49,959 bases of DNA. Origin: Candidatus Nealsonbacteria bacterium (GTDB taxonomy: Bacteria; Patescibacteriota; Minisyncoccia; Minisyncoccales; GWA2-38-27). A program made the position numbers and the translations under genes. The notes beneath the pieces were generated by a model. The model ran no database searches, had not been told where the DNA came from, and was given only the letters and a program-made list of their open reading frames with translations. Of this stretch, positions 8,171 through 35,100 are shown piece after piece; the first letter of the stretch is position 1; each line of letters starts with the position of its first letter. The stretch covers positions 1 through 49,959 of the forward strand of contig JBDREW010000023.1 of NCBI GenBank assembly GCA_043819385.1. Direction: 5' to 3'.

Positions 8171-11100
8171 TTAGTCATTTTCATTATTTTCCAGCTCAAT
8201 TTCAATAATATCTTCCATTCTGTCCTCTTTATCCTCTTCTTTTATTTCTTCTACCTCTTCAATAATATCTTCTGTTTTACACTCTTTATCCTCTTTTTTT
8301 ATTTCCTTACTTACTTCAACTTCCACTATAAGCGGAGTTTGAATAAATTCAGATTCAATTTCTATTTCATCTACTTTTTCAACTTTTTCAATCTCTTTTA
8401 TTTTCTCAACATCAATTTGATCCCCTTGTTCACTTTGTTCAACTTCTACCTCTTCAATAATATCTTCTGTTTTATTTTCTTCTTCTACTCCTTCAATCTC
8501 TTTTATTTTTTCAACATCAATTTGATCCTCCTGTTTTTCTTCCTTAACTTCTACCTCCTTATTTTCTTTTCCTTCTATACTCACTTCAATCTCTTTTATT
8601 TCCTCAATATCTTCTTGCTCAATTTCTTTAATTTCTACTCTCTTAATCTCCTCAATTTCTTTTTCAATTTCATTTTTTAATAAATCCTGTTGTTGTTCTG
8701 TTTCTAAATCTATCTCCTGTTCTTGTCCTGCTTCTTCTTTGTCCTCTTTATCTTCCACAAGATTTTCTTCAAGAAAATCTTGTGGAAATTCCTTTTCTTC
8801 AAAATCCTGTTCTAATTCTAACAACTCGGATTCAATAAAAACTGGCTTAATAACTGGTAGGGCAAAATTATAAGAATATAATTTTATTATTCTTTGATTG
8901 CTGTCTTCATCAACTTTTTCTGAAACTACTACATACAAATTTCCATTCTCCCCTATTGAAAATGATGATAAAATACTTCCATTAACATCTACATTCCACC
9001 TTATAATTCCATTAAAATCAACACTTTGTATTTGTTGTCCTGTTGCGCGAAATCCCCTATTATATTCCTCATAAACACTTGTTCCAACAAAAATATTACT
9101 ATTTCCATCTAAAATCGGCTGAGTATCTATACTTGAACTCTCATTAGGTCCTAATTCCCATAATACTAGCCCAGTAGGACTGAATGCTTTAATTCTTGAC
9201 ATTGGTTCCCATACATAATCTCTAATTCGTTCTGACCATTTATCAACTACAATAATTTTATTATTAGAAGAAATTATTGGGCTATAAACACTGCCATATT
9301 CTGAACCACTTTGCCATAAAACATCTCCATTAGAATCAAAAGCAAAAACTTGTCTTCTTGTGCCGAAATAACCAGAAGTCCCAGCAGTAACATAAATTAT
9401 ATTGTCTTGTCCTACAACAGGAGAGCTTGCTCTTCCACGCAATAAAGGTTTATTCCATATAATATCACCATTCTCTGGATTATAGGCATATAAAGCGCCT
9501 TGTTTTCCGTCTGTAAGAGTTTGAAATCCTGGCCAAGAGACATATATTATTCCATTTGAATCAATTGCTGGTCCATTTCCTGCTGAACCCCCACGAGACA
9601 CTCCTGTTTGTCTCCAATTTAAATTCCCATCAGAATCAATATTATAAAGATATAAATTATCAGTAAAATAAATATTATTATCTTGTCCTATTGTTATTGA
9701 TGAAACATAGCTTAAATCCTCTGCATTAAAAATCCATTTTTCTGTTCCATCTACACTATTTATAGCATAAACTCCTTTATTAGAAATTGGAGCATATATT
9801 GTTTCTCCGTCTTTTGAAATTGCTAAATTATTAGAAGAAGATTCTAAATCAAAAATCCATTTTTCTGTTCCATCTGGATTTAAGGCATAAACTTTTCCAA
9901 ATGAATTATCCCCTACTTTACCAATTATTAAATAAATAATCCCATCTTTTCCAATAATCGGCTGAGAAATTATAACTCCTAAATCTGTTTCAACATCAAC
10001 TAATTTATAAGACCATTTTAAACCAATTGTTTCTGGAACGCTATAATTGCTTCTACCTGTATGTTGAGCATTTTGTTGAAACATTGGCCAAGAAAATTCA
10101 GGATAAAAAATTGGCAATTCTGGTTCTTGGCTATTTTCTGCTTTTGGAGTTCCCATTATCCCATTTTCTCCATTGCCTAAATAAGTATGCCAATCTAAAT
10201 CATTATTATTTCTTTCCATTGTTCTTTTTTCTTGTTTATCACCTGCTAACCAATCAGAATCTGCTATTACTTCATCTTCAAGTTCACAATTATTATTAAA
10301 AAGATAAAGTGCCTCATTAGTATCATTTAAAGACCCTTTATAAATATTATCAGCAGAGATATTCGGAACTGAATCATCATCAGTTCTCTCTAATAAATAA
10401 AATTCTTTTGCAGGAATTATATCATTATTCCCAAAAACTATTTTAATTTGTTTTGTTTTATCTAAAATTTGCCAACCACTTATATTTATTTCATTATTTG
10501 AAATATTTTTTAATTCTATCCACTCATCACTTGACGAAATATCTGTCCCAAACCAAGCTATTTCATTAATAATAACTTTATCTCTAAATGCTTCTTGTCC
10601 TATTGTTTTTTCACAATAATTCGGCTCTATTGAGCTATTTCCATTACTTTGACTGGCAAATGATATTTCAGGATTATTTATTTGCTCATTTCCAAAATTT
10701 TCATCTACTAATTCTTGTTCATCTTGATTATCTAATTCATCTTGGTCTTGTTCTTCTTCTAAAACAAAATCATCTTTTAGTTTAGAATTTCCAACTAATT
10801 TAAGTATTTCTTGATTCAAAATATCTATTCTTTCTGCAATATCATCTAATATATCTTGTAAATTATTTAAATTATTTTCTTGATTTTGTTTTTCAGGTAT
10901 AATAATTTGCTCTATTTGTTTTATTTCTTGTTGTTTTTCAATTATTTCTTCTGTTATTGATTCTGTTTGTCCTATCTCTTCAAAATCAGAATTATTATTG
11001 AAAATATTTAAATTAGTAACTTCTGGACCTATGGCTGCTTGAAAAGGATTTAAATCAGAAAAAAATTGCTTTACATTTTCCCAATTTGCTATTATCTTTT

Positions 11101-13727: not shown

Positions 13728-14069
13728 CTACTTCACAGCTAAAAGCCCTCTAATTTCTTTCATTTCATATTCTAATTTTTCTATTCTACGATTTTGTTCA
13801 GCAATAAGAATCTTTTCAATTGTCTCTAACCTATCTTCTACTCTATCAAATCTTTTATCTATTTGCTCAAATCTTTTATCTATTTGCTCAAATCTTTTAT
13901 CTATTTGCTCAAATCTTTTATCTATTTGCTCAAATCTTTTATCTATTTGCTCAAATCTTTTATCTATTTGCTCAAATCTTTGATTCATTTCATCTTTTCT
14001 AGCTGTTTCATCAAATCCTTTTTTAATCATTATTGCTAAATCTTCAATTGTAATATTTTTTTCTTCCAT
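13728..14069 (-). CDS. Small coiled-coil protein with seven copies of the heptad RFEQIDK
   Basis: 113-aa ORF. The central part is encoded by perfect 21-bp tandem repeats. Confidence 0.6.
   Translation of the reverse strand: MEEKNITIEDLAIMIKKGFDETARKDEMNQRFEQIDKRFEQIDKRFEQIDKRFEQIDKRFEQIDKRFEQIDKRFDRVEDRLETIEKILIAEQNRRIEKLEYEMKEIRGLLAVK
13847..13983. repeat. Six perfect copies plus one partial copy of a 21-bp in-frame tandem repeat (CAAATCTTTTATCTATTTGCT)
   Basis: Read directly from the sequence, with units starting at 13847, 13868, 13889, 13910, 13931 and 13952. Confidence 0.95.
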
Positions 14070-14164: not shown

Positions 14165-14890
14165 TTAAAATCCAATAAACTCTCTAATTTTACTAATAGG
14201 AATAGCTGAAACTTGTCCTTTTTCGTCAATAACACTTAGCCCTATTAATTTACCTTCAATATCAAATAAAGGACTTGCTTTAAGATTCTCTTGCTCAATA
14301 ATATTTGTCTGAATTATTTCATCACTATAATTTCTTATAATCCCCTGATTAACAACTTTTTCTAATTTTCCATTTAATATAACTCCTAATAAAAAAACTC
14401 TTTTACCTAATTTTAAATTTTCAATTTCAACAAAACTAATAGTTGATAAATTTGTTTGTTCTATTTTTATTAAAGCTAAATTACTCTCTTCATCTTTCTT
14501 AATCACTGTATAATCAGGAATAATATCATTCATAAAAATAATTGTTTTTTCATTTTTAGGTAAAAGCTCTGCTAAAGTCAAAACAAGCCCATCAGAAGTA
14601 ATAATAATTCCAGAACCTTGTATTTCCTCTTTTTTAGCAGTAATAGTTTTTATTCCAACAATTGCTTTTTCAATTTTTTTAATTGTTTCTTCTAATGCAG
14701 AGTTCTCTTGAATAAAAATTTCTTGTTTTTCTACTACATTAACAGGAGCTTGCTCAAGACGATATTGATAAAAAAGAGGTCTTTCTATAAAATAAGGCCA
14801 TAAAATTTGGTCAGCAAAAATACCTCCTATTGTTCCAATAACAAAAATAATAATAATTTGACAAACTTTTTTAGTGGTAAGTATTGACAT
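14165..14890 (-). CDS. Membrane-anchored trypsin-like (HtrA-type) fold protein, probably catalytically inactive
   Basis: 241-aa ORF. GSGIIITSDGLVLT, NLALIKIE and IEGKLIGLS align by eye with GTGFIISEDGIILTNKHVV, DLAIIKIE and LEGEVIGIN of the HtrA paralogue at 20841..22133. The His, Asp and Ser positions read E, N and K. Confidence 0.55.
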   Translation of the reverse strand: MSILTTKKVCQIIIIFVIGTIGGIFADQILWPYFIERPLFYQYRLEQAPVNVVEKQEIFIQENSALEETIKKIEKAIVGIKTITAKKEEIQGSGIIITSDGLVLTLAELLPKNEKTIIFMNDIIPDYTVIKKDEESNLALIKIEQTNLSTISFVEIENLKLGKRVFLLGVILNGKLEKVVNQGIIRNYSDEIIQTNIIEQENLKASPLFDIEGKLIGLSVIDEKGQVSAIPISKIREFIGF

Positions 14891-14913
14891 TTTTTGATAT
14901 TATATGGTATAAT
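14884..14913 (+). promoter_or_regulatory. Strong sigma-70 promoter with extended -10 (TTGACA-18-TGGTATAAT), cassette 1
   Basis: TTGACA at 14884-14889 and TATAAT at 14908-14913, preceded by TGG. The stretch TGGTATAATATaGGcAGTAAATTA is nearly identical to 28145-28168. Confidence 0.7.
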
Positions 14914-14968
14914 ATAGGCAGTAAATTAAAAAATAGCTTCTCTAAACCCAATAAAAAGGATATTTCAG

Positions 14969-15226
14969 ATGCATGGTCAACAATGTCGTGACTACCCTGC
15001 CTGTCAGCTCTGTGGATGTCTTGATTGTGAAACTCCTGATTCTCATGATGAGCAGGCTGAGTTTCAAAAAGAACAAGAAATACTCATGACTGACGATGCC
15101 TTATTATGTGAAGAATTTGCACGTTTGATGGAGTTAGGTTATCCAGAAGATGAAGAAGATTTCGATGATTCTGAACTTGATTGGACTTTAATTCCAAGTC
15201 CTTTTGTCAAGAATCCTAATCAATGA
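14969..15226 (+). CDS. Small (85 aa) acidic protein with a Cys-rich N-terminus, opposite-strand cassette 1
   Basis: AAGGA lies 8 nt before the ATG. Six Cys fall in the first 21 aa (CRDYPACQLCGCLDC), followed by a D/E-rich tail. My hand count gives about 39% G+C, clearly above the flanks. The ORF has its own promoter and terminator. Confidence 0.5.
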   Translation: MHGQQCRDYPACQLCGCLDCETPDSHDEQAEFQKEQEILMTDDALLCEEFARLMELGYPEDEEDFDDSELDWTLIPSPFVKNPNQ

Positions 15227-15275
15227 AACCCCTTTGATCTTGACAACTAATCATCAATATCAAGTTATTTCACCC

Positions 15276-15310
15276 AAAGCCCTACGATATTATCAAAGGG
15301 CTTTTTTTAT
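15276..15310 (+). terminator. Conserved terminator, cassette 1
   Basis: AAAGCCCTACGATATTATCAAAGGGCTTTTTTT. It belongs to the same sequence family as 28482-28514 and 31888-31918. Confidence 0.7.
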
Positions 15311-15312
15311 TT

Positions 15313-18009
15313 CTATGCCATTACTTTTTCTTGTTTTCTATTTTTCATCAATTCAAAAGGAGTAGCTATTACAATTTTATCTTTATCTGCATCAATTATA
15401 ACCTGATCTCCTTTTTTTACCAAGCCAGAAACAATTTTTAATGACAAAGGATCAAGTACTTCTCTTTGGATTACTCTTTTTAATGGCCTTGCTCCTAAGT
15501 TTTGATCAAATCCTTGATTTGCTAAAATTATTTTTGCTTTTTCAGATGTTTTTATCCCTATGTTTTTATTCTTTAATCTCTGAACAACTTTTTCCAATTC
15601 TAAATCAACTATTTTTTTAATTTCTGGCTTACCAAGATAATTAAAAATAATAATTTCATCTATTCTATTTAAAAGCTCTGGTCTAAATCCATCTTTCAAA
15701 GAATCCATTACTTTCTCTTTTAATGATTGTTTCTCACCATTTACCTGTTCCCCAAAAAATCCTAAAGAACCCATTTGAGCAATATATTCTGAACCAATAT
15801 TTGAAGTCATTATAAATATTGCATTTTTAAATGATGCTGTTCTCCCCTTAGCATCAGTTAATCTACCATCTTCTAATATTTGAAGTAAAATATTAAAGAC
15901 ATCGGGATTTGCTTTTTCAATTTCATCAAGCAAGATCACACTATAAGGTCTTCTCCTTATTTTTTCAGTTAATTGACCTCCTTCATCATATCCAACATAA
16001 CCAGGAGGAGAACCAATCATTTTAGAAACAGTATGTTTCTCCATATACTCTGACATATCAAGACGAATCAAAGCATTTTCATCATTAAATAAAAATTCAG
16101 CCAAAGCCCGAGCTGTTTCTGTTTTTCCAACCCCAGTAGGACCTAAAAACATAAATGACCCTAATGGCTTATTTTCCTCTGAAATACCAGCTCTTGAACG
16201 TCGAATAGCATTCGAAATTGCTATAATTGCCTCTTTTTGACCAATTACTCTCCGATTCATAATATCTTCTGCTTTTTCTAATTTCTTTGCTTCTTCTTCT
16301 ATCAATCTTGTCAAAGGAATTCCTGTCCAACGCGACACAATTTTTGCAATATCATCTTGGTTTATTTCCTCTTTTAAAATCTGGCTATTTACTTGAATTT
16401 TTGCTAAATCTTTTTCTGTTTGCCTTACTTCTTTAAAAAGTTCTGGTATTTTAGAATATTTAATTTCAGCTACTTTTGCTAAATCTGCTTCTCTTTGAGC
16501 AATTTCAGATTGATATCCAAGAGCATCAATCTCTTTCTTATAATTCCTTATTTTCTGAATTAATTCTTTTTCTGCTTTCCATTTCAATTCAAAAGCTCTT
16601 ACTTTTTCATTTAAATCAGCCAAAGAGCGACCTATAACTATAAGTCGTTTTTTATCATTTTCTTCTTTTTTAATTGCTTGTTTTTCTATTTCAAGTTTCT
16701 GAATTTCTCTTTTTAATTCATCCAACTCAGCTGGTTCTGATTCAATCTCTAAACGTAGAGCAGACATTGCTTCATCCATTAAATCAACTGCCTTGTCTGG
16801 TAAAAATCTATCAGTAATATATCTTGAAGCAAGTTCAGAAGCAGCTATCAACGCAGAATCTTTTATTCTCAATCCATGATGAACTTCATATTTTTCTTTA
16901 ATTCCACGTAAAATTGCAATAGTATCATCAACTGACGACTCTTTTACATAAATTGGTTGAAATCTTCTTTCTAGGGCACCATCTCTTTCAATATATTTTT
17001 GATATTCTTTTAAAGTAGTTGCTCCAACAGCTCTTAACTCCCCTCTTGCTAATGCCGGCTTTAAAAGATTTGAAGCATCAATCGCACCTTCTGCTGCCCC
17101 AGCTCCAATAATAGTATGAAGCTCATCAATAAAAAGAATATATTTTGCTTCATTTCTATTTATTTCTTTTAAAAGGGCTTTTATTCTATCTTCAAACTCT
17201 CCTCTATATTTTGTACCAGCAATTAAAGCACCCAAATCTAAACTAATAAGTTCTTTTTCTTTTAAGCTTTCTGGTGCATCTCCTCTAATAATTCTCTGAG
17301 CTAATCCTTCAATAATAGCTGTTTTACCAACTCCTGCCTCCCCAATTAAAACAGGATTATTTTTTGTTCTTCTTGAAAGAACTTGCATTAAACGACGAAT
17401 TTCATCTTCTCTACCAATTACTGGATCTAATTTCCCTTGTTCTGCCAAAGAAGTTAAATTGCGAGTATATTTTTCAATAACTTGATATTTTGTTTCAGGA
17501 TGAGGATCAGTAATTTTATGGTCTCCTCTAATTTGAGCTAAAGTTTTAAAAACTGTTTCATAATCAAGTTTGCCAACTTCTAAAGAAGAATCTGTTTTTC
17601 CAGTTCTTAAAAAACTTGCTCTATCTAAAATATCTTTTGCTTTAATGTCTGAGCTTATAAGGCCAAGAAACAAATGTTCTATTGAGATAAACTCATCTCC
17701 CATTTTCATTGCTTCTTGCCTTGCTTTATCAAGAACTTTTGCCATATCTTGTGTTAAATAAAATTGACCAAACATCTGAGAAGTTGCTACTGTTGGAATT
17801 ATATTTAAAGCTGTTTCAGTTTTTTCAACTAATCTTTTTATATCAACTCCTAATTTTCTAAGCAAAGTCAAAACAATACTTTCATCTTGAGAAAGCAAAG
17901 ATAAAAGTAAATGCAAGGCATCTATTTGTTGTTGCCCTTTATTTTGAGCAATTGATTGCGCATTTATAATAGATTCTTGCGCCTTATGTGTAAAATTTGC
18001 TCCATTCAT
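15313..18009 (-). CDS. clpB: ATP-dependent chaperone/disaggregase ClpB
   Basis: 898-aa ORF. Clp N-domain, two AAA+ modules (GEAGVGKT and GPTGVGKT Walker A motifs), a long coiled-coil middle domain and a conserved C-terminal domain. Confidence 0.95.
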
Positions 18010-18115: not shown

Positions 18116-18138
18116 TTTGCAGAGATTTTACCGAGAGC

Positions 18139-18184
18139 TTACGGAGAGGTACTCTCCGGAGCTCCGGAGAGCACCTCTCCGTAA
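18139..18184. repeat. 46-bp near-perfect palindrome built from two ACGGAGAG-NNN-CTCTCCG hairpins
   Basis: TTACGGAGAGGTACTCTCCGGAG|CTCCGGAGAGCACCTCTCCGTAA, with one mismatch between the arms. Confidence 0.9.
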
Positions 18185-18263
18185 ACTATTCCATGTTATA
18201 TATTATATGTTTTATTAACATATTTTTTGCTAAAAATCAAGTTTAAATTAAAAATAATCTCTT

Positions 18264-18410: not shown

Positions 18411-18761
18411 TTATTGTGATTTATCATTTCTTTTTGCAAATGCTTCAGTCAAAACTACTAAAAATGAATGGCCTAATTCTGAAAAATTAATCATCCTATC
18501 AGCTCCAGGTGTTTCAAATAATTTTTCTAATTGATGAAAATATCTTGAAATTAATAATAAGAGAGCTTTTTTTCTAATACCATGAGGACAAATAAATTCA
18601 CTATCTTTTATAGTACAGATAATATGAATAAGCCCATCAGTAATTCCAAATTTTTTAAAAACAGGAAAATTCCTTAAAATATTGTCTAATCCAGCTCCTT
18701 CTTTTAGTGCTGTTGCTAAAGATGATTCAAGTTTTTCAAAATCTCCAAAATATTCAGGCAT
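18411..18761 (-). CDS. Hypothetical protein (116 aa) flanked by hairpin repeats
   Basis: ORF from the track with no motif recognised. ACGGAGAG-type hairpins lie on both sides. Confidence 0.4.
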   Translation of the reverse strand: MPEYFGDFEKLESSLATALKEGAGLDNILRNFPVFKKFGITDGLIHIICTIKDSEFICPHGIRKKALLLLISRYFHQLEKLFETPGADRMINFSELGHSFLVVLTEAFAKRNDKSQ

Positions 18762-18856
18762 TTTTTCAATCCTTTATTTTAAGGTGCTTATGTTACTACA
18801 GAATATATCTTTCTTAACATAAATAAATATAAAAGCAAAATATATATCAAATAAAA

Positions 18857-18953
18857 CTTACGGAGAGGTGCTCTCCGTAAGCTCAAATCCCCTTTAACTA
18901 AACTTACGGAGAGCATCTCTCCGTAGCTCTAACGGAGAGGTGCTCTCCGTAAG
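18857..18953. repeat. Three further ACGGAGAG-NNN(N)-CTCTCCGT hairpins
   Basis: CTTACGGAGAGGTGCTCTCCGTAAG (18857-18881), CTTACGGAGAGCATCTCTCCGTAG (18903-18926) and AACGGAGAGGTGCTCTCCGTAAG (18931-18953). Confidence 0.9.
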
Positions 18954-19028
18954 CTCATGGTCTTCAAATTAAAGTTGCGGGGAATAAATAGTTGCGGGGG
19001 ACTGTTCCCCGCAACTTTATTACATACA

Positions 19029-19082
19029 TTGTAAGAAATGATAGTGTTGTTTACAGTTCTTTGGGATAAAAATAATTAATTA
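19029..19082. repeat. 54-bp dispersed repeat, copy 1 (the partner is at 49859-49912)
   Basis: TTGTAAGAAATGATAGTGTTGTTTACAGTTCTTTGGGATAAAAATAATTAATTA, with 3 mismatches against copy 2 in direct orientation. Confidence 0.9.
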
Positions 19083-19150: not shown

Positions 19151-19438
19151 TCAATTGACTGCTACATTACCATCTGAATTAATATAAAAAAATATTCTAT
19201 CTTCATTAAATCCAAAATCAAATCCTTTAAAAACATTCCTTTTGACTTTTGGTTTACCATTTTGCATAATTCCAATTGCTATTCTCTCTTTCTCTATTTC
19301 GCCCGTTATACTATCTATCACTCTTGACGTTACACATGGTTTACTTTTTCGCCTGCAATCTAATTTCATAGATTTTACAATCCTTTCTGCTTGAACAAAA
19401 TGTTTTTCTTCAGCTTCTCGTGGTAATATGACAATCAT
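19151..19438 (-). CDS. Small hypothetical protein (95 aa)
   Basis: ORF from the track, 11 nt downstream of the preceding ORF and so likely co-transcribed with it. Confidence 0.4.
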   Translation of the reverse strand: MIVILPREAEEKHFVQAERIVKSMKLDCRRKSKPCVTSRVIDSITGEIEKERIAIGIMQNGKPKVKRNVFKGFDFGFNEDRIFFYINSDGNVAVN

Positions 19439-19449
19439 TTTCTTACTCC

Positions 19450-19743
19450 TTATTCTGTTTCAAAAGGAAGAAATGACCTAGCTAAATCTCGTTTTGATGA
19501 TTCTCCAATCCTTTTAAAATTACTTTCTAAATTAATTTCAATAACACTTTTTACTCCAGAAAACTGACTAAAAATATTTATTGCTCCATCAGTAATTTGA
19601 GCACAACCTAGAAAAGCAACAAATATTAATCCATTTTCATCTATTAAAAAACAAAACCCTTCTCTTTTTAATTTTATTCTCAAATTTTCAATTTCTTGTT
19701 CTGTTCTTTCTTCATCCATTAAAATAACCATTCCATTCTTCAT
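19450..19743 (-). CDS. Small ferredoxin-like/ACT-like domain protein (97 aa)
   Basis: The pattern MVILMDEERTEQEIENLRIKLKREGF...GLIFVAFLG...FSGVKSVIEI resembles, from memory, the stand-alone beta-alpha-beta regulatory domain found at the N-terminus of some DAHP synthases. Weak call. Confidence 0.35.
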   Translation of the reverse strand: MKNGMVILMDEERTEQEIENLRIKLKREGFCFLIDENGLIFVAFLGCAQITDGAINIFSQFSGVKSVIEINLESNFKRIGESSKRDLARSFLPFETE

Positions 19744-19781: not shown

Positions 19782-19862
19782 CCATCACAACCAGTCCCGC
19801 CTTCTAAGCATATGAATTAACATTTAGCATAGAAGGCGGGATGATGTAAGGGCAAGAAAAAA
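19782..19862. repeat. ~80-bp hairpin-containing repeat, copy 1 (the partner is at 27212-27292, inverted)
   Basis: The 12-bp stem TCCCGCCTTCTA / TAGAAGGCGGGA (19795-19806 / 19830-19841) has a 23-nt loop. The flanks CCATCACAAC and GATGTAAGGGCAAGAAAAAA are also conserved. Confidence 0.85.
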
Positions 19863-20150: not shown

Positions 20151-20387
20151 TCATTTTCTTAAAATTTTTAAAAATTCTTCTATTGTTATTCCAATATCTT
20201 CTTCAATAATCTTTTTTAAGAGTGATTTTTTAATGTCTTTTCCTTTATGAACAGGAACAACTGCTCTTTTTTGATTTAATGGATTATATAAAATAAGATG
20301 ACTACCACGAGAACGATCTTTTCTAAATCCTAATTTTAACAATACAAAAATAACATCTTTTGATTTTAAGCTAGGGAGTTTTTTCAT
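20151..20387 (-). CDS. hicA: HicA-family mRNA interferase toxin
   Basis: 78-aa ORF. LKSKDVIFVLLKLGFRKDRSRGSHLILYN matches the HicA/YcfA pattern (G-F....GSH). It lies immediately downstream of the hicB-like gene. Confidence 0.85.
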   Translation of the reverse strand: MKKLPSLKSKDVIFVLLKLGFRKDRSRGSHLILYNPLNQKRAVVPVHKGKDIKKSLLKKIIEEDIGITIEEFLKILRK

Positions 20388-20421
20388 AAAAATTAATCCA
20401 CTAACAAATAGAATAATATCG

Positions 20422-20667
20422 TTAAACTGTAACTTCTATTTTACCTTGAAGAATACGCATCTCTTCTGGTATTTTTTCTCTATGTTGGTCTAAACTTTCT
20501 AAATATAATTGAATTGCTTCTTTAATATTTTTCTCTGCTTCCTCTAAGGTATCCCCTTGAGTATGACAACCTGATAAACTTGGCACAAAAGCAATGTATC
20601 CGCCACCAAAAACTGCTTGATAAATTACAGTATATGAAAATATTTTTTTCTTAATTTCTTGAATCAT
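20422..20667 (-). CDS. hicB: HicB-family antitoxin (UPF0150 fold)
   Basis: 81-aa ORF. GGGYIAFVPSLSGCHTQGDTLEEAEKNIKEAIQLYLESL is the typical HicB N-domain signature. Confidence 0.85.
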   Translation of the reverse strand: MIQEIKKKIFSYTVIYQAVFGGGYIAFVPSLSGCHTQGDTLEEAEKNIKEAIQLYLESLDQHREKIPEEMRILQGKIEVTV

Positions 20668-25908: not shown

Positions 25909-27211
25909 TTGATATTATCTTTTCAATATTATAAACGCCCTTTTTTTCTATTTTGATAAATCCTTCCATCGCTGCTTCGGCAAATCTTCCACCATTTATA
26001 CAATCAAAAAGCCATTGATCAACATAATTCGGATTGCCTTGTGCTATTCCTGACCCAACTCTTAAAAGCCATTTTCTATTTAAATCTTCTTGCGAACCGA
26101 TTGATGGAGCAATCATAATAGGCACACCTAATCCAGAATAAAAAGAAAGTTCACTTGGTTTTGTCCATAAAATATCTGTTTTTCGAAGTTTTTGATTAAA
26201 TTTATCAAAATATTTATAAATATCTTTGTCATATAATATTTCAATATTTTTATCTAAAACTGGTTTTAAACCAAGATGTTGAATTTCTTCCCAAAAATAA
26301 TCTCTTACTTTTTCTCTAATTCCTGCTGATAAAATTATTTTTATTTCTCCCTTTTTAATTCTTTCAGATAAATTTTTAACAAATCTAATTGCCATTTCTT
26401 TTTGTGCTCCAGCTCCTCCAATAGAAAATAATATTGTCAAAGGATGATCTGCCACTTTTGGTAATGGCCCTAAATTTATTTCAATCAATTTATTATATTT
26501 TTTACTATATTCTTTTTTAGGATCTAAATTGAAAAGACGATATCTTAAATCATTTTTTAAAATTTCCATTTCTTCTGTTCCAATGTTTTCTATTGGTAAT
26601 GGAAAACCAGTTAAAAAAATGTTTTTTGGTTTTACCCCATAAAGCTTTAATCTATCTCTTGTCCAAGAATTAGGAGCAAAATACTTAATTCTACTTTTCT
26701 TCGGATATAATGGGGCCCAAGCCCTAGCGATGTCAGCATCACAAATAACACAATAAATATCTCTGGGATAATCAAAAATTTCTGCCATAAAAGCTGATGT
26801 AAAAAATGTCGTTATAAACGGCACTTTCTTTTTTTTAAGTTTTTCAATCAAATGCTTGCCCCATTCTTTTTTGATAATAATAGAAAACATTTTCCTAAGA
26901 AGAAGACTTGACTTTGATAGATCTCTCCTTGGATAAAAATTAGGAATTTCTTGAATTTTATTGTAAAGATAAAAAATAAAATCACCTATAAAAGGAATTT
27001 TCTTAAATCTGGAAATAAATTCGTAAAAATTTCTGCTTGATTTCCAAATTTTCTTATCTTTTTCAGGAATTCCTTTATAGCTATTAGCATTTATAATCTT
27101 ATTGTCAAAAGCAACTTTTTTTAATGGATAAGCGGTTCTTTGATGACCATAACCCATATTAACTGCAACAACCCATGCTTTATTGTTTTTAATTGTATTT
27201 TTTTCTTCCAT
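25895..27211 (-). CDS. GT-B glycosyltransferase (GT28/MGDG-synthase-like)
   Basis: 438-aa ORF. N-terminal VAVNMGYGHQRTAYPL and the C-terminal half FSIGGAGAQKE...PSELSFYSGLGVPI resemble MurG/MGDG-synthase-type enzymes. It overlaps the nagZ-like gene by 14 nt. Confidence 0.6.
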   Translation of the reverse strand: MEEKNTIKNNKAWVVAVNMGYGHQRTAYPLKKVAFDNKIINANSYKGIPEKDKKIWKSSRNFYEFISRFKKIPFIGDFIFYLYNKIQEIPNFYPRRDLSKSSLLLRKMFSIIIKKEWGKHLIEKLKKKKVPFITTFFTSAFMAEIFDYPRDIYCVICDADIARAWAPLYPKKSRIKYFAPNSWTRDRLKLYGVKPKNIFLTGFPLPIENIGTEEMEILKNDLRYRLFNLDPKKEYSKKYNKLIEINLGPLPKVADHPLTILFSIGGAGAQKEMAIRFVKNLSERIKKGEIKIILSAGIREKVRDYFWEEIQHLGLKPVLDKNIEILYDKDIYKYFDKFNQKLRKTDILWTKPSELSFYSGLGVPIMIAPSIGSQEDLNRKWLLRVGSGIAQGNPNYVDQWLFDCINGGRFAEAAMEGFIKIEKKGVYNIEKIISNETY

Positions 27212-27292
27212 TTTTTCTTGTCCTTACATTATCCCGCCTTCTATGCTAAATGTTAATTCATACGCTTAGAAGGCGGGACTAGTTGTGATGGA
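27212..27292. repeat. ~80-bp hairpin-containing repeat, copy 2, abutting the start codon of the GT28-like gene
   Basis: Stem TCCCGCCTTCTA (27232-27243) / TAGAAGGCGGGA (27267-27278). The reverse complement matches 19782-19862 at about 90% by eye. Confidence 0.85.
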
Positions 27293-27322
27293 TTAATTTT
27301 CAAATTTTTAATTTTTCTATTT

Positions 27323-27343
27323 CTCTCCCGAGACCCGACCTCT
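27323..27343. repeat. Half copy (5' arm only) of the GC-rich palindromic repeat
   Basis: CTCTCCCGAGACCCGACCTCT without the 3' arm. Confidence 0.7.
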
Positions 27344-27424
27344 ATTATTAAAACTCATAAATTAAAACTCATAACTTTTTAAAATCTAAATTTCCCTAGC
27401 TTTCTCTTTTCTTCTCCCTCCCCC

Positions 27425-27476
27425 GAGCCCCGACCCCTAAAAAACTTCCTCTCCCTCTCGAGAGAGGTCAGGGCTC
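27425..27476. repeat. GC-rich palindromic intergenic repeat (family copy)
   Basis: GAGCCCCGACCCCT-aaaaaacttcctctccctctcg-AGAGAGGTCAGGGCTC. Confidence 0.85.
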
Positions 27477-27593
27477 TTTCCAGCTTTCACTCTTACTTTT
27501 TTTTAATTTTTTAAGTTTTTAAGTTTTTATTATTATATTTTAACCTTTTCAAAACCAAAATACAAGAAAAAAATGTTGAAAAGTTATAATAAT

Positions 27594-27622
27594 TTGACAT
27601 TATTTTAAAATTAAATTATTAT
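27594..27622 (+). promoter_or_regulatory. Sigma-70-type promoter TTGACA-17-TATTAT for the plus-strand RNA array
   Basis: TTGACA at 27594-27599 and TATTAT at 27617-27622. Confidence 0.55.
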
Positions 27623-27629
27623 TAAAAAT

Positions 27630-27745
27630 AGTTCTCTTCCCTGAAAGCAAGATAAGGGCTTGAAAAACAACAGAGAAATTAGCCCATCGGAAAAGCTTAC
27701 TAATGCTGTAAGAAAAACACCAGTCCCTTATCTTGCTTTTTATCC
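27630..27745 (+). ncRNA. Candidate small RNA M1 (12-bp closing helix, ~66-nt interior, U-tail)
   Basis: GCAAGATAAGGG (27648-27659) pairs perfectly with CCCTTATCTTGC (27726-27737), followed by TTTTTAT. There is an internal hairpin CTTAC-taatgct-GTAAG. No ORF. Confidence 0.4.
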
Positions 27746-27794
27746 TTATTGCGAAATATTTTTCGCAAAAAATTATAGTTCTTTCTATCTATAA

Positions 27795-27840
27795 AAGCTC
27801 TTGACAGAAACCTTCCCAGGTGCTCTCGTTTAGAGCTTTT
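27795..27840 (+). ncRNA. Module M2, a hairpin enclosing CTCTTGACA and CCCAGGTGCT, paralogous to 45683-45803
   Basis: AAAGCTCT (27795-27802) pairs with AGAGCTTT (27833-27840), then TTT. It shares the blocks AAAAGCTCTTGACA, CCCAGGTGCT and AGAGCTTTTTG with the rpsG-fusA spacer. Confidence 0.35.
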
Positions 27841-27842
27841 TG

Positions 27843-27933
27843 GGGGCTTAAGGTATGTCTGCATGAACGCTTATGCCAAAAGCTAACTCACGCAAGACAA
27901 AGGTATAACATCCCTTCCTTAAGTCCCCTTTTA
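27843..27933 (+). ncRNA. Candidate small RNA M3 (12-bp closing helix plus U-tail)
   Basis: GGGGGCTTAAGG (27843-27854) pairs with CCTTAAGTCCCC (27918-27929) with one mismatch, followed by TTTT. The interior is about 63 nt and has GTCTGC / GCAAGAC pairing. Confidence 0.4.
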
Positions 27934-27946
27934 AAAAAGTAGCAAG

Positions 27947-28123: not shown

Positions 28124-28153
28124 TTGACAAATTATAGTTTATTGTGGTATAAT
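28124..28153 (+). promoter_or_regulatory. Strong promoter with extended -10 (TTGACA-18-TGGTATAAT), cassette 2
   Basis: TTGACA at 28124-28129 and TATAAT at 28148-28153. TGGTATAATATgGAtAGTAAATTA is nearly identical to 14905-14928. Confidence 0.7.
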
Positions 28154-28200
28154 ATGGATAGTAAATTAGCCCTTTCACTTCACTTTTGAGGAGATATGTA

Positions 28201-28461
28201 ATGACTACCAAAGAGTTTGCTTTCTTCGTCGCCGATTTGTGTATAGGCATAAAAAACTCTGCGCAATTCGAAGGAGGTTGTATTCGTTGTTGCAGTCAAA
28301 ATCCATTGTCCTTCGCCGAGATGGTTGCTAATCATCTTGATGATGAGAAACTCTATGATCTTACCCAAAAATTAGGTGGTGGAGATTTCCATCGCCTATG
28401 CCCTACGCCGAGAGAGTTTCTCACTGCCCTGTCGGAGGTTGTTTCTCCACTTGAGCCGTGA
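28201..28461 (+). CDS. Small (86 aa) acidic protein, opposite-strand cassette 2
   Basis: The ATG at 28201 is preceded by GAGGAG 7 nt upstream. The track ORF starts at a TTG at 28186. My hand count gives about 45% G+C. No homology recognised (contains CIGIK...GGCIRCC). Confidence 0.45.
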   Translation: MTTKEFAFFVADLCIGIKNSAQFEGGCIRCCSQNPLSFAEMVANHLDDEKLYDLTQKLGGGDFHRLCPTPREFLTALSEVVSPLEP

Positions 28462-30119: not shown

Positions 30120-30141
30120 TTCTTTATATTATCATAAAATA

Positions 30142-30401
30142 TGCAAAGCATTCTCTTGTGTAACGAGGGGAAAGGAGAGATTCAAGCATTGCTCATCAAA
30201 GACAGAAAGCCTCGGAACCCGCTAGGAACCAATCCGACCATCTCACTTTGTTGGAAAAATTCTTAATCCTTCTTTCCCCTCTATTTTAGTTCTTTTCTTG
30301 AAGTTCTTTCGCTCAACTCAGGAACAAAATTTTACCACTACTGAGTAAACCCGCTCTTTTGTTCCCACCTTAAAGGCCTATATTCATAGGCCTATTTTTT
30401 T
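30142..30401 (+). ncRNA. Candidate structured plus-strand RNA(s) between comEC and nrdG
   Basis: Possible promoter TTGACT (30107-30112)-17-TATCAT. GAGGGGAAAG (30165-30174) pairs with CTTTCCCCTC (30272-30281) around a ~97-nt interior that is more G+C-rich than the background. Next come the competing helices ACTCAG / CTGAGT and GGAACAAAA / TTTTGTTCC. It ends in the strong terminator AGGCCTAT-attc-ATAGGCCT-ATTTTTTT (30374-30401). No ORF. Confidence 0.4.
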
Positions 30402-30492
30402 ATTATAAATGACAAATTATTTTTCTGCCCTTGACCAATTATTTATATATATTAAAATAAATAAAAGAACATTATTAATTTAAAATAAAAAT

Positions 30493-30582
30493 ATGGATGA
30501 CAAAGTTTCAGTTACAATAGCTATAATAGCATCACTTGTTGTTAGTTATTTACTTGGTTTTTTATCTGTAAATATTTTTTAA
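30493..30582 (+). CDS. Possible 29-aa hydrophobic micropeptide
   Basis: ATG..TAA encodes MDDKVSVTIAIIASLVVSYLLGFLSVNIF (one TM helix), followed by a hairpin terminator. There is no clear SD, so this is speculative. Confidence 0.2.
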   Translation: MDDKVSVTIAIIASLVVSYLLGFLSVNIF

Positions 30583-30596
30583 GAATTAAATACAAT

Positions 30597-30637
30597 AAAA
30601 AAACAACAAAAATATGTTTGTTTTTGTTGTTTTTTTA
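30597..30637. terminator. AT-rich bidirectional hairpin terminator
   Basis: AAACAACAAAAA-tatgtttg-TTTTTGTTGTTT, flanked by A and T runs. It lies downstream of both the micropeptide ORF (+) and nrdG (-). Confidence 0.5.
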
Positions 30638-30677
30638 TATTTGATTTTTCTATCTTTATATTATTTTGACATTTAAT

Positions 30678-31471: not shown

Positions 31472-31582
31472 AAGTATTAAGTATTAAGTATTAAAATTAT
31501 TGACTATTTTGTATTTCATTGACATTTATTAAGATATAATGTATAAATTAGTTAGTTAACTTGTTCTTTTTACAAAAAGGAG

Positions 31583-31867
31583 ATGATTATGAGCTTTATA
31601 AGTGGTCTTGGTAGTTCTTCTTATTCAGATCCAGATGATTGGGAAGATAAAGATGAAGAATATAGCAAAGAAGATATAGAAAAGCTTTGTGAAGAGGCGG
31701 AAGAAGAATGGCAAAAGAAAAAAGAAAGACGGGAAGAAGGAATAAAAGATATGGAATCTTTTCATAGATTTATGGAAAAGCCGTTAGTCCAATTAATAAC
31801 AATTTTTCTAACGATAGGTTTCTTTGCTTCGATAATAATATACTGGTTTAGATCTTTGATCTTTTAA
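31583..31867 (+). CDS. Small acidic protein with a C-terminal TM anchor, opposite-strand cassette 3
   Basis: 94-aa ORF. AAGGAG abuts the first ATG, so the ATG at 31589 is the more likely start. The middle is D/E/K-rich and the C-terminus (LITIFLTIGFFASIIIYWF) is hydrophobic. It is followed by the family terminator. Confidence 0.5.
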   Translation: MIMSFISGLGSSSYSDPDDWEDKDEEYSKEDIEKLCEEAEEEWQKKKERREEGIKDMESFHRFMEKPLVQLITIFLTIGFFASIIIYWFRSLIF

Positions 31868-31918: not shown

Positions 31919-31971
31919 CTTTATTATAAATTTAAAATTACAAATTAAAAAAGAGAGAAGAAAGCTGGGAA

Positions 31972-32025
31972 GAGACCCGACCTCTCTTAGAGAGGGAGAG
32001 GAAGTTTTTTTAGAGGTCGGGTCTC
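31972..32025. repeat. GC-rich palindromic intergenic repeat, the only inverted-orientation copy
   Basis: GAGACCCGACCTCT-cttagagagggagaggaagttttttt-AGAGGTCGGGTCTC, with perfect 14-bp arms. The loop is the reverse complement of the loop in the other copies. Confidence 0.9.
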
Positions 32026-32109
32026 GGGAGAGGAATAGAAAAATTAAAAATTAAATTAAATAACCCTTTACAGGGTTATTATATCTTATTTCTAAAAAAT
32101 ACAAAAGAG

Positions 32110-35100
32110 TTAATTTTTTAAAACAAATTCTTTTCGTTCTTTGAATTCTTGCTTTTTACCAATATGCCATTGACCAACAGGACGTATGTATCCAACTATC
32201 CTTGAATAAACCTCACATGGCTGTTCAATAGCACATTTAGGACAATTAAAATGCTCACCTGACAAATACCCATGAGCAGGGCATATTGAAAATGTTGGAG
32301 TTAAAGTAATATACGGCAAATGATAATTTTCAAATACTTTTTTAACTAATGCTTTAGCCATTTGAGGATCATTTATTTTTTCCCCTAAAAACAAGTGGAG
32401 AACCGTACCACCACTATATTTACACTGAATATCGTCTTGAAGATCCAATGCTTTAAAAACATCATCAGTAAAACCAACCGGTAACTGAGACGAATTTGTA
32501 TAATAAGGGAATTCTTTTGTTCCAGCTGTAATAATATCTGGATATTTATCTTGATCAGCTTTTGCCTGCCTATAACTTGTTCCCTCTCCAGGGGTTGCTT
32601 CAAGATTATATAAATTACCAGTTTCTTCTTGATATTTTATTAATCTATCTCTCATAAATTCCAAAACTTCAATTGCAAACTTCTTTCCTTTTGGAGTTGT
32701 AGTTTGTTCTCCTAAAAAGTTTAAAAGTGCTTCATTCATTCCCATTAAACCAATTGTTGAAAAATGATTTCCAATATATGAACCTCTCATTTTTTTAACT
32801 GACTCTAAATAATATCTTGAATATGGATACAAACCCTTTTCCATAAAGTTGTCTAACGCCTTTCTTTTAATTTCTAAACTTTCTTTTGCTAAATCCATCA
32901 AACGTTCTAATCTGTCAAAAAATTCTTGTTTAGTTTTTGAGAGATAACCAATCCGAGGTAAATTTATTGTCACTACACCAATTGAGCCAGTCAAAGGTTG
33001 TGATCCAAAAAGTCCTCCTCCTCTCATGTATAATTCTTTATTGCTCAATCTCAATCTGCAACAATTAAAAGAAATCTGACCCAAAGAATGCAAAAATAAA
33101 TGATTTTTATTTAATTCTAAATCATAAAATTCTTTTAGTTTTTTAGAAATTTTCTTTTTAATTGACTTAACTCTAAGAATATAAATATCGCTATTCTTTA
33201 TTTTCAAACTTTCATTAGTATGAGCATTATATTTATCTATAGTATCAAAACCAATTGTTCGTGATTTTGAAAAACCAGGAATTTTTCTTCCATTTGTCAC
33301 AAAAGCAGGTGTTCTTTCTGAAATAATCGGATTATTAAGCCATCCATTATTTTCTTTTATTTTTGATTTGGCGTGTTGTATATAAATTCTCTGGCTATTT
33401 TTTCTTAATTTATAAGTAACTGGTTGTCCAATTAAAGAATAAAGCAAAACTAAATCCCTTGATAGCTCTAAATCATTTATATGAATTTCTTTTCTTTTAT
33501 CATAACCATCGCCCTTAAAATGAAATTCTAAAAAACTTTTAATAACTGATACTGGAGAATTAAATAAAATTTGGGGTTGTCTTCCATACTTTTTAAAACC
33601 GCTATTATATAATTTCCTTGATAGTTTTGTATTGTAAATATAAAGATAATAAGTATTATAACGAGGATCTTGTTTTTCTTTTCCCTCTAATCCAAAAACT
33701 TTTTTTATTAAAGATTTAACTAATTCTAAATTTTCAAAATCTCCTGTCCTAAAAGTAAATTGAAGACCTCTTGGTTCTCCATAATGAGTATAACCTTTTC
33801 TATTTTCAAAAAGATAATTTCCGTCAGCAACAAAATATCCTAAAATCTTTGCTAAATCTTCATTTAAAATAATATCATCATCTAATTCTTGATAAGTTTT
33901 TGACAAACTATTTTGAGCATTTTTGATAGAAAGAAGATAATCTCCTTTTTCAATATCCTTTGACCATTTCATTATAATTCCTTTTTCTGTAAAAACAGGA
34001 ATCGGATGTTTTGCTGAAAAAGTTGCTATTTTTCCATCTTCAGTAGTAATCTCTATTGTTTTTCTGTCAAAAACTCTTAAAAATCTTTTTACTGATGACC
34101 ATTCTGTTTTAAAAGTTTTAGGATTTAATGACAAAACTTCTAAACCTCCCTCTTTTTTACAATTTGTCCAGCCATACCTATCAAATTCTTTTGATTTATA
34201 CTTTTCAGCTACCTCTTTAATTGATAATCTTTTAATATTTTTAGAATTTCTAATTAAAACTTCTTCGTTTTTATCTAAACACATTGAACGAAAATCATCT
34301 GGATCCATATCTGATTTTACAAAATTTTGAAAATAATTAACTCCATATTTTGCAGTTGCTTCCCATAATGGCTCTAAATATGGATTATTCCAATCAAAAT
34401 CTTTTGTAATAGAAACTGTTGGGATAGGAAAAGTAAAAGGTCTTCCTTTTGCATCTCCTTCCATCAAAACCTCATAAAATACTTTATTAAAAATATTCAT
34501 TTCTTCCTGAAATTCATTATATGTTTCTTTCTGAGTTTTTCCTCCGATAATTACTGGCTGTTTACCTAAAGATGTAGGGGGTTTAATGTCTATGGTTGTA
34601 TTAAGGAAAGGAGTTTGAAAGCCGACCCTAGTCGGTACCATACAATTAAATAAAAATTCTTGCATTGCTTGTTTTACCTGAGCATAATTCAAATTATCGT
34701 ATCTAATATATGGAGCTAAAAGAGTATCAAAATTTGAAACAGCCTGAGCCCCTGCTGAATTTCCACACCAAGTAGCTTTACCTTTTCGTCTTACATAAAG
34801 AGTATGATTCGGCACCTCTAAACAATAAACTTTATCATTATATGCTATTTTTTTAATATTATCTTCTTCATTTTTAAATCTAAAATGCTTTGCTCTTGAA
34901 ATGCCAATATCAAACCAATGAAATTTTTCCTTTGTTCTTTTATAGATATTAGCACTCCATCCTAATTTTAAAACTATTTCCTGAACATCATCAGCTAATC
35001 TTTTACTTTTAGTAGAATATTCAATATTTCCATTACCTATGTATCCATCGCCTTTCATCATCCAATTAAATAAAATCTTTAATTGATTTTTAGACAAATT

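Follow-up and report, generated by a model that had tools for sequence, protein, structure and literature searches.

In the T4-type phages RB49 and phi1, repeated PeSL units join a promoter of sigma-70 consensus, a stem-loop terminator and a Shine-Dalgarno sequence; they flank small ORFans in variable regions that are present or absent between relatives, and recombination between units was proposed to insert or delete ORFans together with the signals that express them (Arbiol et al. 2010, PMC2839356). Phage morons, described by Juhala and Hendrix, likewise have a promoter and terminator of their own, a deviant G+C content and are absent from related genomes (reviewed in PMC3594210). Here, we describe three units of similar build, C1, C2 and C3, in a bacterial chromosome: contig JBDREW010000023.1 of Candidatus Nealsonbacteria bacterium (assembly GCA_043819385.1), complete at 49,959 bp, about 27% G+C and referred to below as the window. 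We consider it probable that C1–C3 are self-contained monocistronic cassettes, made from a regulatory kit common to a clade of Parcubacteria and wrapped around exchangeable orphan cargo. Genomes of the candidate phyla radiation (CPR, or Patescibacteria), to which this host belongs, are tiny and streamlined and, to our knowledge, the acquisition and expression of new genes in them are poorly understood.

Anatomy of the Three Cassettes

Genes in the window lie nearly all on the minus strand. Three plus-strand units interrupt them where a preliminary description of this DNA had placed them, all antisense to their neighbors: C1 (14884–15308) between clpB and an S1-protease gene, C2 (28124–28514) between comEC and a glycosyltransferase gene, and C3 (31519–31918) between nrdD and nrdG. 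Every unit consists of a sigma-70 promoter, a Shine-Dalgarno sequence, an acidic open reading frame (ORF) of 85–92 amino acids (aa) and a hairpin of the form CCCU-RC-GA..UC-AA-RGGG-U6. Coordinates are given on the plus strand unless marked otherwise.

The promoter and leader claimed to be common to C1 and C2 are found in both as TTGACA-18-TGGTATAATAT..AGTAAATTA, a perfect TTGACA-18-TATAAT promoter with TG extension. The 24-nucleotide (nt) promoter/leader pattern matches the window only at 14905–14928 and 28145–28168, with zero matches expected by chance. In C1, promoter and conserved transcript start extend over 14884–14928, with the −35 TTGACA at 14884–14889, TGG at 14905–14907, the −10 TATAAT at 14908–14913 and ATAGGCAGTAAATTA at 14914–14928; the −35 overlaps the ATG (14890–14888) of the divergent protease gene. 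The Shine-Dalgarno sequence AAGGA (14956–14960) stands 8 nt upstream of the ATG of the ORF at 14969–15226. C2 repeats this arrangement over 28124–28168 (−35 at 28124–28129, TGG at 28145–28147, −10 at 28148–28153, ATGGATAGTAAATTA at 28154–28168), followed by the Shine-Dalgarno sequence GAGGAG (28188–28193) and the ORF at 28201–28461. A profile of the promoter family returns both with nhmmer (E-values of 7.9e-6 for C1 and 1.5e-7 for C2), both sequences having been part of its training set. The C3 promoter, TTGACA-17-TATAAA (31519–31547, 11 of 12 consensus matches), has downstream of it TTAGTTAGTT, similar to the ATAGATAGTT of the family; the profile does not detect this promoter, which is therefore at most a weaker relative. 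The spacing from the Shine-Dalgarno sequence AAGGAG (31577–31582) favors the ATG at 31589 over that at 31583, so that the C3 ORF (31589–31867) encodes 92 aa and not the 94 aa first proposed, while the lengths given for C1 and C2 (85 and 86 aa) stand.

All three units close with the same unusual terminator, as had been noted. The pattern CCCTRCGA-N(1-10)-ATCAARGGG occurs exactly three times in the window (15280, 28486 and 31892), always on the plus strand, where zero occurrences are expected by chance, and a hairpin profile built from 50 external copies has these three terminators as its only matches in the window. The C1 terminator (15276–15308) reads AAAG-CCCT-AC-GAT-ATT-ATC-AA-AGGG-C-T7 and its T-tract ends 4 nt short of the clpB stop codon (15313–15315); that of C2 (28482–28514) reads AAAA-CCCT-GC-GATA-CAA-TATC-AA-GGGG-T6 and lies 4 nt from the comEC stop (28518); that of C3 (31889–31918) reads AAA-CCCT-GC-GA-CTATA-TC-AA-AGGG-T6. 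All fold into an outer stem, a 2 × 2 internal loop (RC opposite AA) and an inner stem of 2–4 bp, closed by a loop of 3 nt in C1 and C2 and of 5 nt in C3; folding energies are −8.2 to −11.6 kcal/mol. The stable G+C-containing hairpin followed by 6–7 U residues is that of an intrinsic (Rho-independent) terminator, whereas in the reverse direction only 3–4 U residues follow. The hairpin would end transcription of the cassette and, at C1 and C2, keep antisense transcripts out of the convergent genes, clpB and comEC. C1 also carries an alternative 5′ arm, CCCTTTGAT (15230–15238), perfectly complementary to the 3′ arm of its terminator; the same arm forms the hairpin of the related locus L072.

Insertion Status and the Kit in Related Genomes

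The spacer between clpB and the protease gene, which are on the same strand, measures 11 nt in L071, 0 nt in L072 and 139 nt in L073 against 422 nt in the window, a gap filled exactly by the antisense C1. Between nrdD and nrdG, L070 has 98 nt and the window 640 nt, made up of C3 and a repeat element; in L069, nrdD, nrdG and comEC are contiguous with 3-nt spacers. Since their junctions are tight in relatives (0–139 nt), C1 and C3 are insertions. The cassettes are not fixed across relatives, the junctions of C1 and C3 being tight in every one examined. C2, in turn, converges on comEC.

Three loci syntenic with the window by tBLASTn, L016, L037 and L044 (ClpB 81%, ComEC 53–55% and GT438 65% identity), contain opposite-strand small-ORF cassettes with the same hairpin and unrelated cargo at different junctions of the nrdD-nrdG-comEC neighborhood. 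L016 has two cassettes between GT438 and comEC, the second of which (B) encodes a membrane protein of 95–101 aa, depending on the start, with its hairpin adjoining the comEC stop, which is the position of C2. L037 has two cassettes after comEC, and the first of them (96 aa) carries the hairpin. In L044, a 57-aa ORF and hairpin lie between comEC and nrdG; its comEC-GT438 and nrdD-nrdG junctions are tight. The promoters and first transcribed bases of these relatives align with those of C1 and C2 as TTGACA(A)AT..GGTG-TATRRT-RTRGRATAGT... In L046, a unit of hairpin, promoter, leader, Shine-Dalgarno sequence and ATG stands on either side of an 81-aa ORFan as a direct duplication, and in L016 and L037 an inter-cassette spacer of about 120 nt is repeated, which is not recognizable upstream of C2. 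Placement on the opposite strand, first described as a trait of the family, holds for the window and its close relatives but not for hairpin-bearing genes overall, which are mostly co-oriented with their neighbors.

The promoter-family profile gave 14 matches in the DNA examined, eight of them 100–700 nt upstream of a hairpin; among the eight outside the training set, three do so, against 3.3% expected. A downstream ORF could be called for 13 of the 14 matches, always of 38–185 aa and never a core gene. Other opposite-strand orphans, in L069, have perfect TTGACA-18-TGGTATAAT promoters and different terminators. Since profile matches and the L069 promoters precede small ORFs, some of them without the hairpin, we regard the promoter as a clade-wide type tied to small stand-alone genes.

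A fourth opposite-strand micro-unit was observed in the nrdG-comEC spacer (30431–30640), with a promoter-like TTGACC-16-TAAAAT and a different terminator. Its 29-aa hydrophobic peptide (30493–30582), MDDKVSVTIAIIASLVVSYLLGFLSVNIF, has a 59% identical counterpart at the same place and strand in L070 (3551–3465, minus strand), and therefore appears to be a conserved small membrane peptide.

The Hairpin in Other Genomes

The strict hairpin pattern was scanned in the GTDB species genomes, IMG/VR and a collection of metagenome loci. It was found at 10 GTDB loci (mostly Saccharibacteria, Staskawiczbacteria and Parcubacteria), 2 IMG/VR loci and 56 metagenome loci, i.e., at about 70 public loci, when about one chance match is expected in these collections. 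From their neighbors, which are housekeeping genes typical of CPR bacteria, most of these loci can be taken as cellular; the hosts are mostly CPR chromosomes and some phages. There is usually one copy per contig, even in contigs of 92–585 kb, compared with three in the 50-kb window. In the cultured Shewanella phage 3/49, TCCCCTACGATAATATCAAAGGGGATTTTTT directly follows the major head gene, and in two contigs related to this phage (L009 and L011) the hairpin is at the same place.

Sequence conservation is confined to an element of about 30 nt, outside of which nothing is conserved. Within it, the observation that conservation extends to loop and internal-loop positions proved valid well beyond this genome. 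The triloop reads N-R-Y: position 2 is a purine in 51/52 copies and position 3 a pyrimidine in 52/52. The flanking pair, which the pattern leaves unconstrained, covaries: among 64 distinct copies, 57 are paired (G-C in 29, A-T in 23 and G.T in 5). The bases of the internal loop were fixed by the search pattern and their dominance is therefore ascertained and not measured; a relaxed viral scan returned 7 distinct hairpins in 9 loci with GC/AA in 2/7, a sample too small to speak of dominance. In L041 and L061, 28/28 hairpin bases are identical behind homologous proteins of 30% identity, in otherwise unalignable DNA. No Rfam family corresponds to the hairpin, and a full-text literature search for its sequence returned nothing. 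This terminator hairpin of about 30 nt, for which Rfam has no entry, keeps its sequence, unpaired bases included, all the way from Parcubacteria to a Shewanella phage.

Genes in front of the hairpin tend to be small (median near 100 aa). About 45 unrelated, mostly orphan cargo proteins precede it; 36 of 44 have no Pfam match, the remaining eight match eight different families, and all-against-all BLAST of the cargo recovered only obvious orthologue pairs.

We considered several known elements for the hairpin and rejected them: the pairing register does not fit a K-turn; an embedded extended −10 (TGCGATAAT) would have C as its last position in half of the copies; a dif/Xer site was rejected as well; the hairpin sequences contain no attC boxes (R″, RYYYAAC; R′, GTTRRRY); copies per genome are far too few for a DNA-uptake sequence; and no convincing complementarity was found between the loop and the conserved leader. 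As a separate observation, a 23-nt motif, AAACAGGTTCTAACATCGTTCAG, occurs several times per locus in L036 (1798–5642), L049, L057, L064 and L065, often right after a terminator hairpin, and may be a second conserved type of promoter or operator in another group of these organisms.

Cargo Proteins and Shine-Dalgarno Sequences

The proteins of C1, C2 and C3 show no similarity to each other and are all acidic (isoelectric points of 4.05, 4.77 and 4.50), both as originally described. So are the cysteine clusters of C1 (Cys 6, 12, 15, 17, 20 and 47, five of them within residues 6–20) and C2 (five, Cys 14, 27, 30, 31 and 67); C3 combines an acidic N-terminal part with a C-terminal transmembrane helix. 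The raised G+C content noticed in C1 and C2 is borne out at 39.1% and 45.2% (31.5% in C3) against 27.9 ± 3.3% in host genes. G+C at third codon positions (GC3) is 0.235, 0.407 and 0.239 in C1, C2 and C3 versus 0.139 ± 0.029 in host genes; the composition of the cassettes is therefore foreign.

C1 is an orphan, with no homologue among 5.8e9 clustered proteins. C2 is another: an exhaustive HMMER search of 1.84e9 representatives gave three matches, rejected as short-match artefacts multiplied across internally repetitive proteins. C3 matched nothing among the compared loci or the other cargo proteins, the large protein databases not having been searched with it. The cargo of L022 has the same architecture as C3 (acidic N-terminus, C-terminal transmembrane helix, similar leader) but, as BLASTP finds no alignment, we make no claim of homology. 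Searches of the cassette proteins against Pfam, PHROGs, PADLOC and PDB sequences were empty or insignificant, and single-sequence AlphaFold models of C1 and C2 are helical and of low confidence (predicted local distance difference test scores of 57 and 61). An earlier suggestion of anti-defense or DNA-mimic function thus finds no support in these searches and models; the cassette proteins are probably accessory.

A GGAG-type Shine-Dalgarno sequence precedes 3/3 cassette ORFs, compared with 1/17 large ORFs in the window and 8/62 across the window and its relatives, and is also found in the cassettes of L016, L037 and L044. Three small orphan ORFs of the window (18411–18761, 19151–19438 and 19450–19743) have AGGA or AGGAG upstream, as C1–C3 do. 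The leaders of core genes are A/T-rich and without Shine-Dalgarno sequences, some of them with (TACTTAA)n-like repeats, as in front of clpB and nrdG. As there is no 16S gene in the window, the Shine-Dalgarno sequences of the cassettes are to be read here as sequence motifs. A survey did not detect the anti-Shine-Dalgarno motif in about half of Parcubacteria (PMC9297842). The split between cassette genes with and core genes without Shine-Dalgarno sequences is sharp, and it occurs in a lineage of which many members are reported to lack the anti-Shine-Dalgarno motif.

Host, Gene Array and Other Repeats

The host is a cellular Parcubacteria chromosome and not a phage or prophage. The window encodes ClpB, FtsZ, FtsA, an intein-containing NrdD, NrdG, ComEC, EF-G, S7, S12, HisRS and a signal peptidase; the best homologues of NrdG and of the protease come from Parcubacteria (53–74% identity), with Nealsonbacteria among the named matches, and no phage, integrase or transposase domain was found among the window ORFs scanned. 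NrdD (32110–36570, minus strand) has 1486 aa, compared with 715 aa in the relative L069. Intein splicing and LAGLIDADG domains were recognized in the window protein by Pfam, and the gene therefore carries one or more inteins.

ARAGORN found a single tRNA gene in the window, tRNA-Leu (45826–45899), downstream of a perfect TG-extended consensus promoter (45690–45717). It is a further plus-strand unit inside the minus-strand array and overlaps a spurious 74-aa minus-strand ORF. On the minus strand, 20151–20667 encodes an apparent toxin–antitoxin pair of HicA/HicB type (78 and 81 aa), judged from the sequences alone, and the 113-aa ORF at 13728–14069 contains seven tandem 21-nt repeats (13792–14001) that encode a perfect FEQIDKR heptad coiled coil, behind a promoter with 12/12 consensus positions (14107–14078).

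Two ORF-free plus-strand stretches, 30133–30390 and 27594–27940, are G+C-rich (0.39–0.41) and may be unannotated small RNAs. In the latter, a TTGACA-17-TATTAT promoter at 27594 precedes a hairpin RNA of about 105 nt (AAGCAAGATAAGGG...CCCTTATCTTGCTTTTT), and another structured stretch (GGGGCTTAAGG...CCTTAAGTCCCCTTTT) is found at about 27845–27935; neither has an Rfam match.

Several other repeats were observed. An intergenic repeat resembling repetitive extragenic palindromes (REPs), GAGACCCGACCTCT...CTCTCGAGAGAGGTCGGGGCTC, has at least 6–8 copies in the window, often as nested hairpins at gene 3′ ends (928, 18264, 22198, 24674, 27303–27478, 31949–32052, 42585 and 43352), and is found in L022 (about 9830–9880) and in the clpB-protease spacer of L073; its core, GACCCGACC, is common to related Parcubacteria. 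Another repeated hairpin family, CTTACGGAGAGGTGCTCTCCGTAAG, comes in five clustered copies (18130–18190 and 18850–18960) around small orphan ORFs with Shine-Dalgarno sequences, between hicAB and clpB. An 81-nt element containing the hairpin CCCGCCTTCTA..TAGAAGGCGGG occurs twice in inverted orientation at 95% identity: one copy (19782–19862) is just upstream of the ORF at 19450–19743 and the other (27211–27291) abuts the start of a 438-aa gene at 27211. Finally, a 67-nt direct repeat (19016–19082 and 49846–49912, 88% identical) has its two copies 31 kb apart, both intergenic.

Discussion

We propose that the kit comprises a strong sigma-70 promoter with TG-extended −10, a conserved transcript start of about 15 nt, a canonical Shine-Dalgarno sequence, a cargo ORF and a hairpin of fixed sequence with the consensus CCCU-RC-GAU-NRY-AUC-AA-RGGG-U6. 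The kit is conserved and the cargo is not, related genomes wrapping other small ORFs at other junctions. The cassettes would be transcribed and translated, and new ones may arise by recombination at the conserved ends, as was proposed for PeSL units and phage morons. The preliminary description had seen in them a portable expression module. The lineage-specific insertions, the foreign orphan cargo and ends that recur around unrelated ORFs agree with it; it has to be narrowed, since the promoter (TTGACAAAT..GGTGTATAAT-ATAGATAGT) is not private to the cassettes, and their mobility we only infer. As it stands, core junctions such as clpB-protease and nrdD-nrdG are split by antisense orphan genes with a reusable promoter, Shine-Dalgarno sequence and terminator.

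Several observations weigh against portability. The single hairpin copies per contig that are usual elsewhere, among mostly co-oriented genes, fit a selected RNA element as well as a mobile one. The promoter, being a general consensus of the clade, is possibly shared through common regulation and not through descent. Neither a recombinase nor an excision product was found, and no target-site duplications were seen at the C1 and C3 borders on reading the junction sequences, a dedicated search not having been made. Identical runs between the ends of C1 and C2 do not exceed 11 nt, too short for ordinary homologous recombination. Also, the closest relatives available are distant (about 55–80% protein identity), which leaves the gain undated and makes loss from every other relative formally possible.

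An alternative is that the units have common regulation and no portability: they would form one regulon or expression class, served by the same sigma factor or regulator and the same RNA 3′-end factor, and their ORFs would be vertically inherited, either fast-evolving or arisen de novo inside stable transcription units, with similarity lost. The clade-wide distribution of the promoter family, also in front of small ORFs without the hairpin, is in keeping with this; so is the 29-aa opposite-strand peptide gene kept in place in the window and L070, and the identical hairpin behind the diverged homologues of L041 and L061 points to selection on the element itself. However, junctions of at most 139 nt in every relative examined mean that DNA was added at C1 and C3, the 45% G+C and GC3 of 0.41 of C2 in a genome with GC3 of 0.14 argue against a local origin under AT-biased mutation, and the cargo at the syntenic comEC site differs in kind (soluble four-helix versus two-transmembrane membrane proteins). 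We regard common regulation without portability as possible, though unlikely.

A bolder hypothesis is that CPR bacteria and their phages have a dedicated system for exchanging gene cassettes, with the hairpin and the promoter/leader together as its handle. As a counterpart, in cells, to PeSL mini-circles or integrons, the system would circulate a large pool of small orphan genes among minimal CPR genomes. The fixed loop would be recognized by a protein, which could be an RNA 3′-end factor or a recombinase that works on folded DNA, and the Shine-Dalgarno sequence would let cassette genes be translated differently from core genes. We hold this to be doubtful, and put it forward as speculation.

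The hairpin could act at the DNA level as a recombination or recognition site, like attC or the subterminal hairpins of IS200/IS605 elements, and a dedicated enzyme encoded elsewhere would capture or mobilize the cassettes. Conservation that includes unpaired bases, the many unrelated small ORFans that accompany the hairpin in phages and CPR genomes, and the element duplicated around the ORFan of L046 could all be explained in this way. The missing attC boxes and the lack of any integrase or transposase found in the 50-kb window argue otherwise, as does the dispersed arrangement of cassettes that have their own promoters and one hairpin each. Moreover, an A-tract, a hairpin and a U-tract are the classic anatomy of an intrinsic terminator, which is what the element has, and its flanking pair covaries as an RNA stem would. 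A DNA-level site is, in our judgment, improbable.

G+C-rich islands in AT-rich genomes are often structured RNAs, and the units could be non-coding RNA genes whose ORFs are fortuitous, their G+C islands reflecting RNA structure. C2 does fold slightly better than shuffled sequence (z = −2.2), but transcript folds are unremarkable overall (−1.3 in C1, +1.4 in C3). Rfam gave no match at the gathering threshold over the whole window and, at the E-value threshold, only weak matches over the cassettes, well below the gathering score. In all three units a strong Shine-Dalgarno sequence stands 6–9 nt before an ATG from which the ORF fills the transcript, and C1 has the pattern GC1>GC2>GC3. On the grounds of Rfam, fold scores and these coding features, the units were treated as protein genes, and we consider a non-coding origin very improbable. 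Least probable of all, and hardly credible, is a kinship with type I toxin–antitoxin loci, which consist of a hydrophobic toxin under about 60 aa and an overlapping antisense RNA: the units are multi-copy and intergenic with conserved ends, as the untranslated regions of such loci would be, and a transmembrane helix in a small protein is seen in C3 and in many cargo ORFs elsewhere, but C1 and C2 are soluble, strongly acidic and of 85–86 aa, neither an antisense RNA gene nor an overlapping promoter was identified, and the cargo is far too heterogeneous for small toxic membrane peptides.

Comparison with Known Systems

C1–C3 as portable cassettes can be set against several described systems. Repeated imperfect palindromes at gene 3′ ends recall REPs and bacterial interspersed mosaic elements, which are short and conserved too, but REPs are species-specific and present in hundreds of copies, whereas this hairpin has few copies per genome and extends across CPR lineages and phages of Proteobacteria. 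Bidirectional intrinsic terminators are reportedly found between convergent genes (Ju, Li and Liu, 2019); the hairpins of C1 and C2, 4 nt from the convergent clpB and comEC stops and flanked by an A-tract and a T-tract, are similar to them, except that the reverse side offers only 3–4 U and that a conserved loop is not a property of generic terminators. Integron cassettes also carry small ORFs, most of them orphans, behind each of which stands an imperfect hairpin, and their cargo can be exchanged between genomes. Unlike them, the units described here lack attC R/L boxes, do not form a tandem promoterless array, have their own promoters and a U-tract after the hairpin, and neither IntI nor attI was found, with no integrase domain among the window ORFs.

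Like phage morons, C1–C3 are, by their sequence, autonomous units with their own promoter and terminator between two genes of a conserved array, deviate in base composition from the flanking genes and, at C1 and C3, are absent from relatives. Morons are defined in phage and prophage genomes, whereas no phage genes were found in the window, and they usually do not have one shared promoter and terminator kit.

The likeness to PeSL units is that the cassettes, too, repeat a sigma-70 promoter, a stem-loop terminator and a Shine-Dalgarno sequence beside ORFans, and that L046, L016 and L037 show a terminator and promoter unit on both sides of an ORFan. The differences are of setting and of form: the cassettes are in a cellular CPR chromosome among core genes and not in a hyperplastic region of a T4-type phage; their promoter and hairpin stand at opposite ends of a solitary antisense unit in the window and are contiguous, as in the PeSL intergenic unit of about 100 bp, only in the tandem arrangements of L046, L016 and L037; and their stem-loop has a fixed sequence across phyla, while the PeSL stem is a variable polyG/polyC. 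Neither mini-circles nor recombination of the PeSL kind was observed here; the duplicated unit of L046 and the differing cassette positions among relatives are indirect indications, both read from sequence. As the phage context that defines morons and PeSL units is not that of this chromosome, we do not file the cassettes under either; they are best read as portable expression cassettes of a cellular CPR genome that resemble morons or PeSL units. If general, they would be a concrete way in which CPR bacteria gain genes and ORFans arise or spread in them, analogous to morons and PeSL units but in cells.

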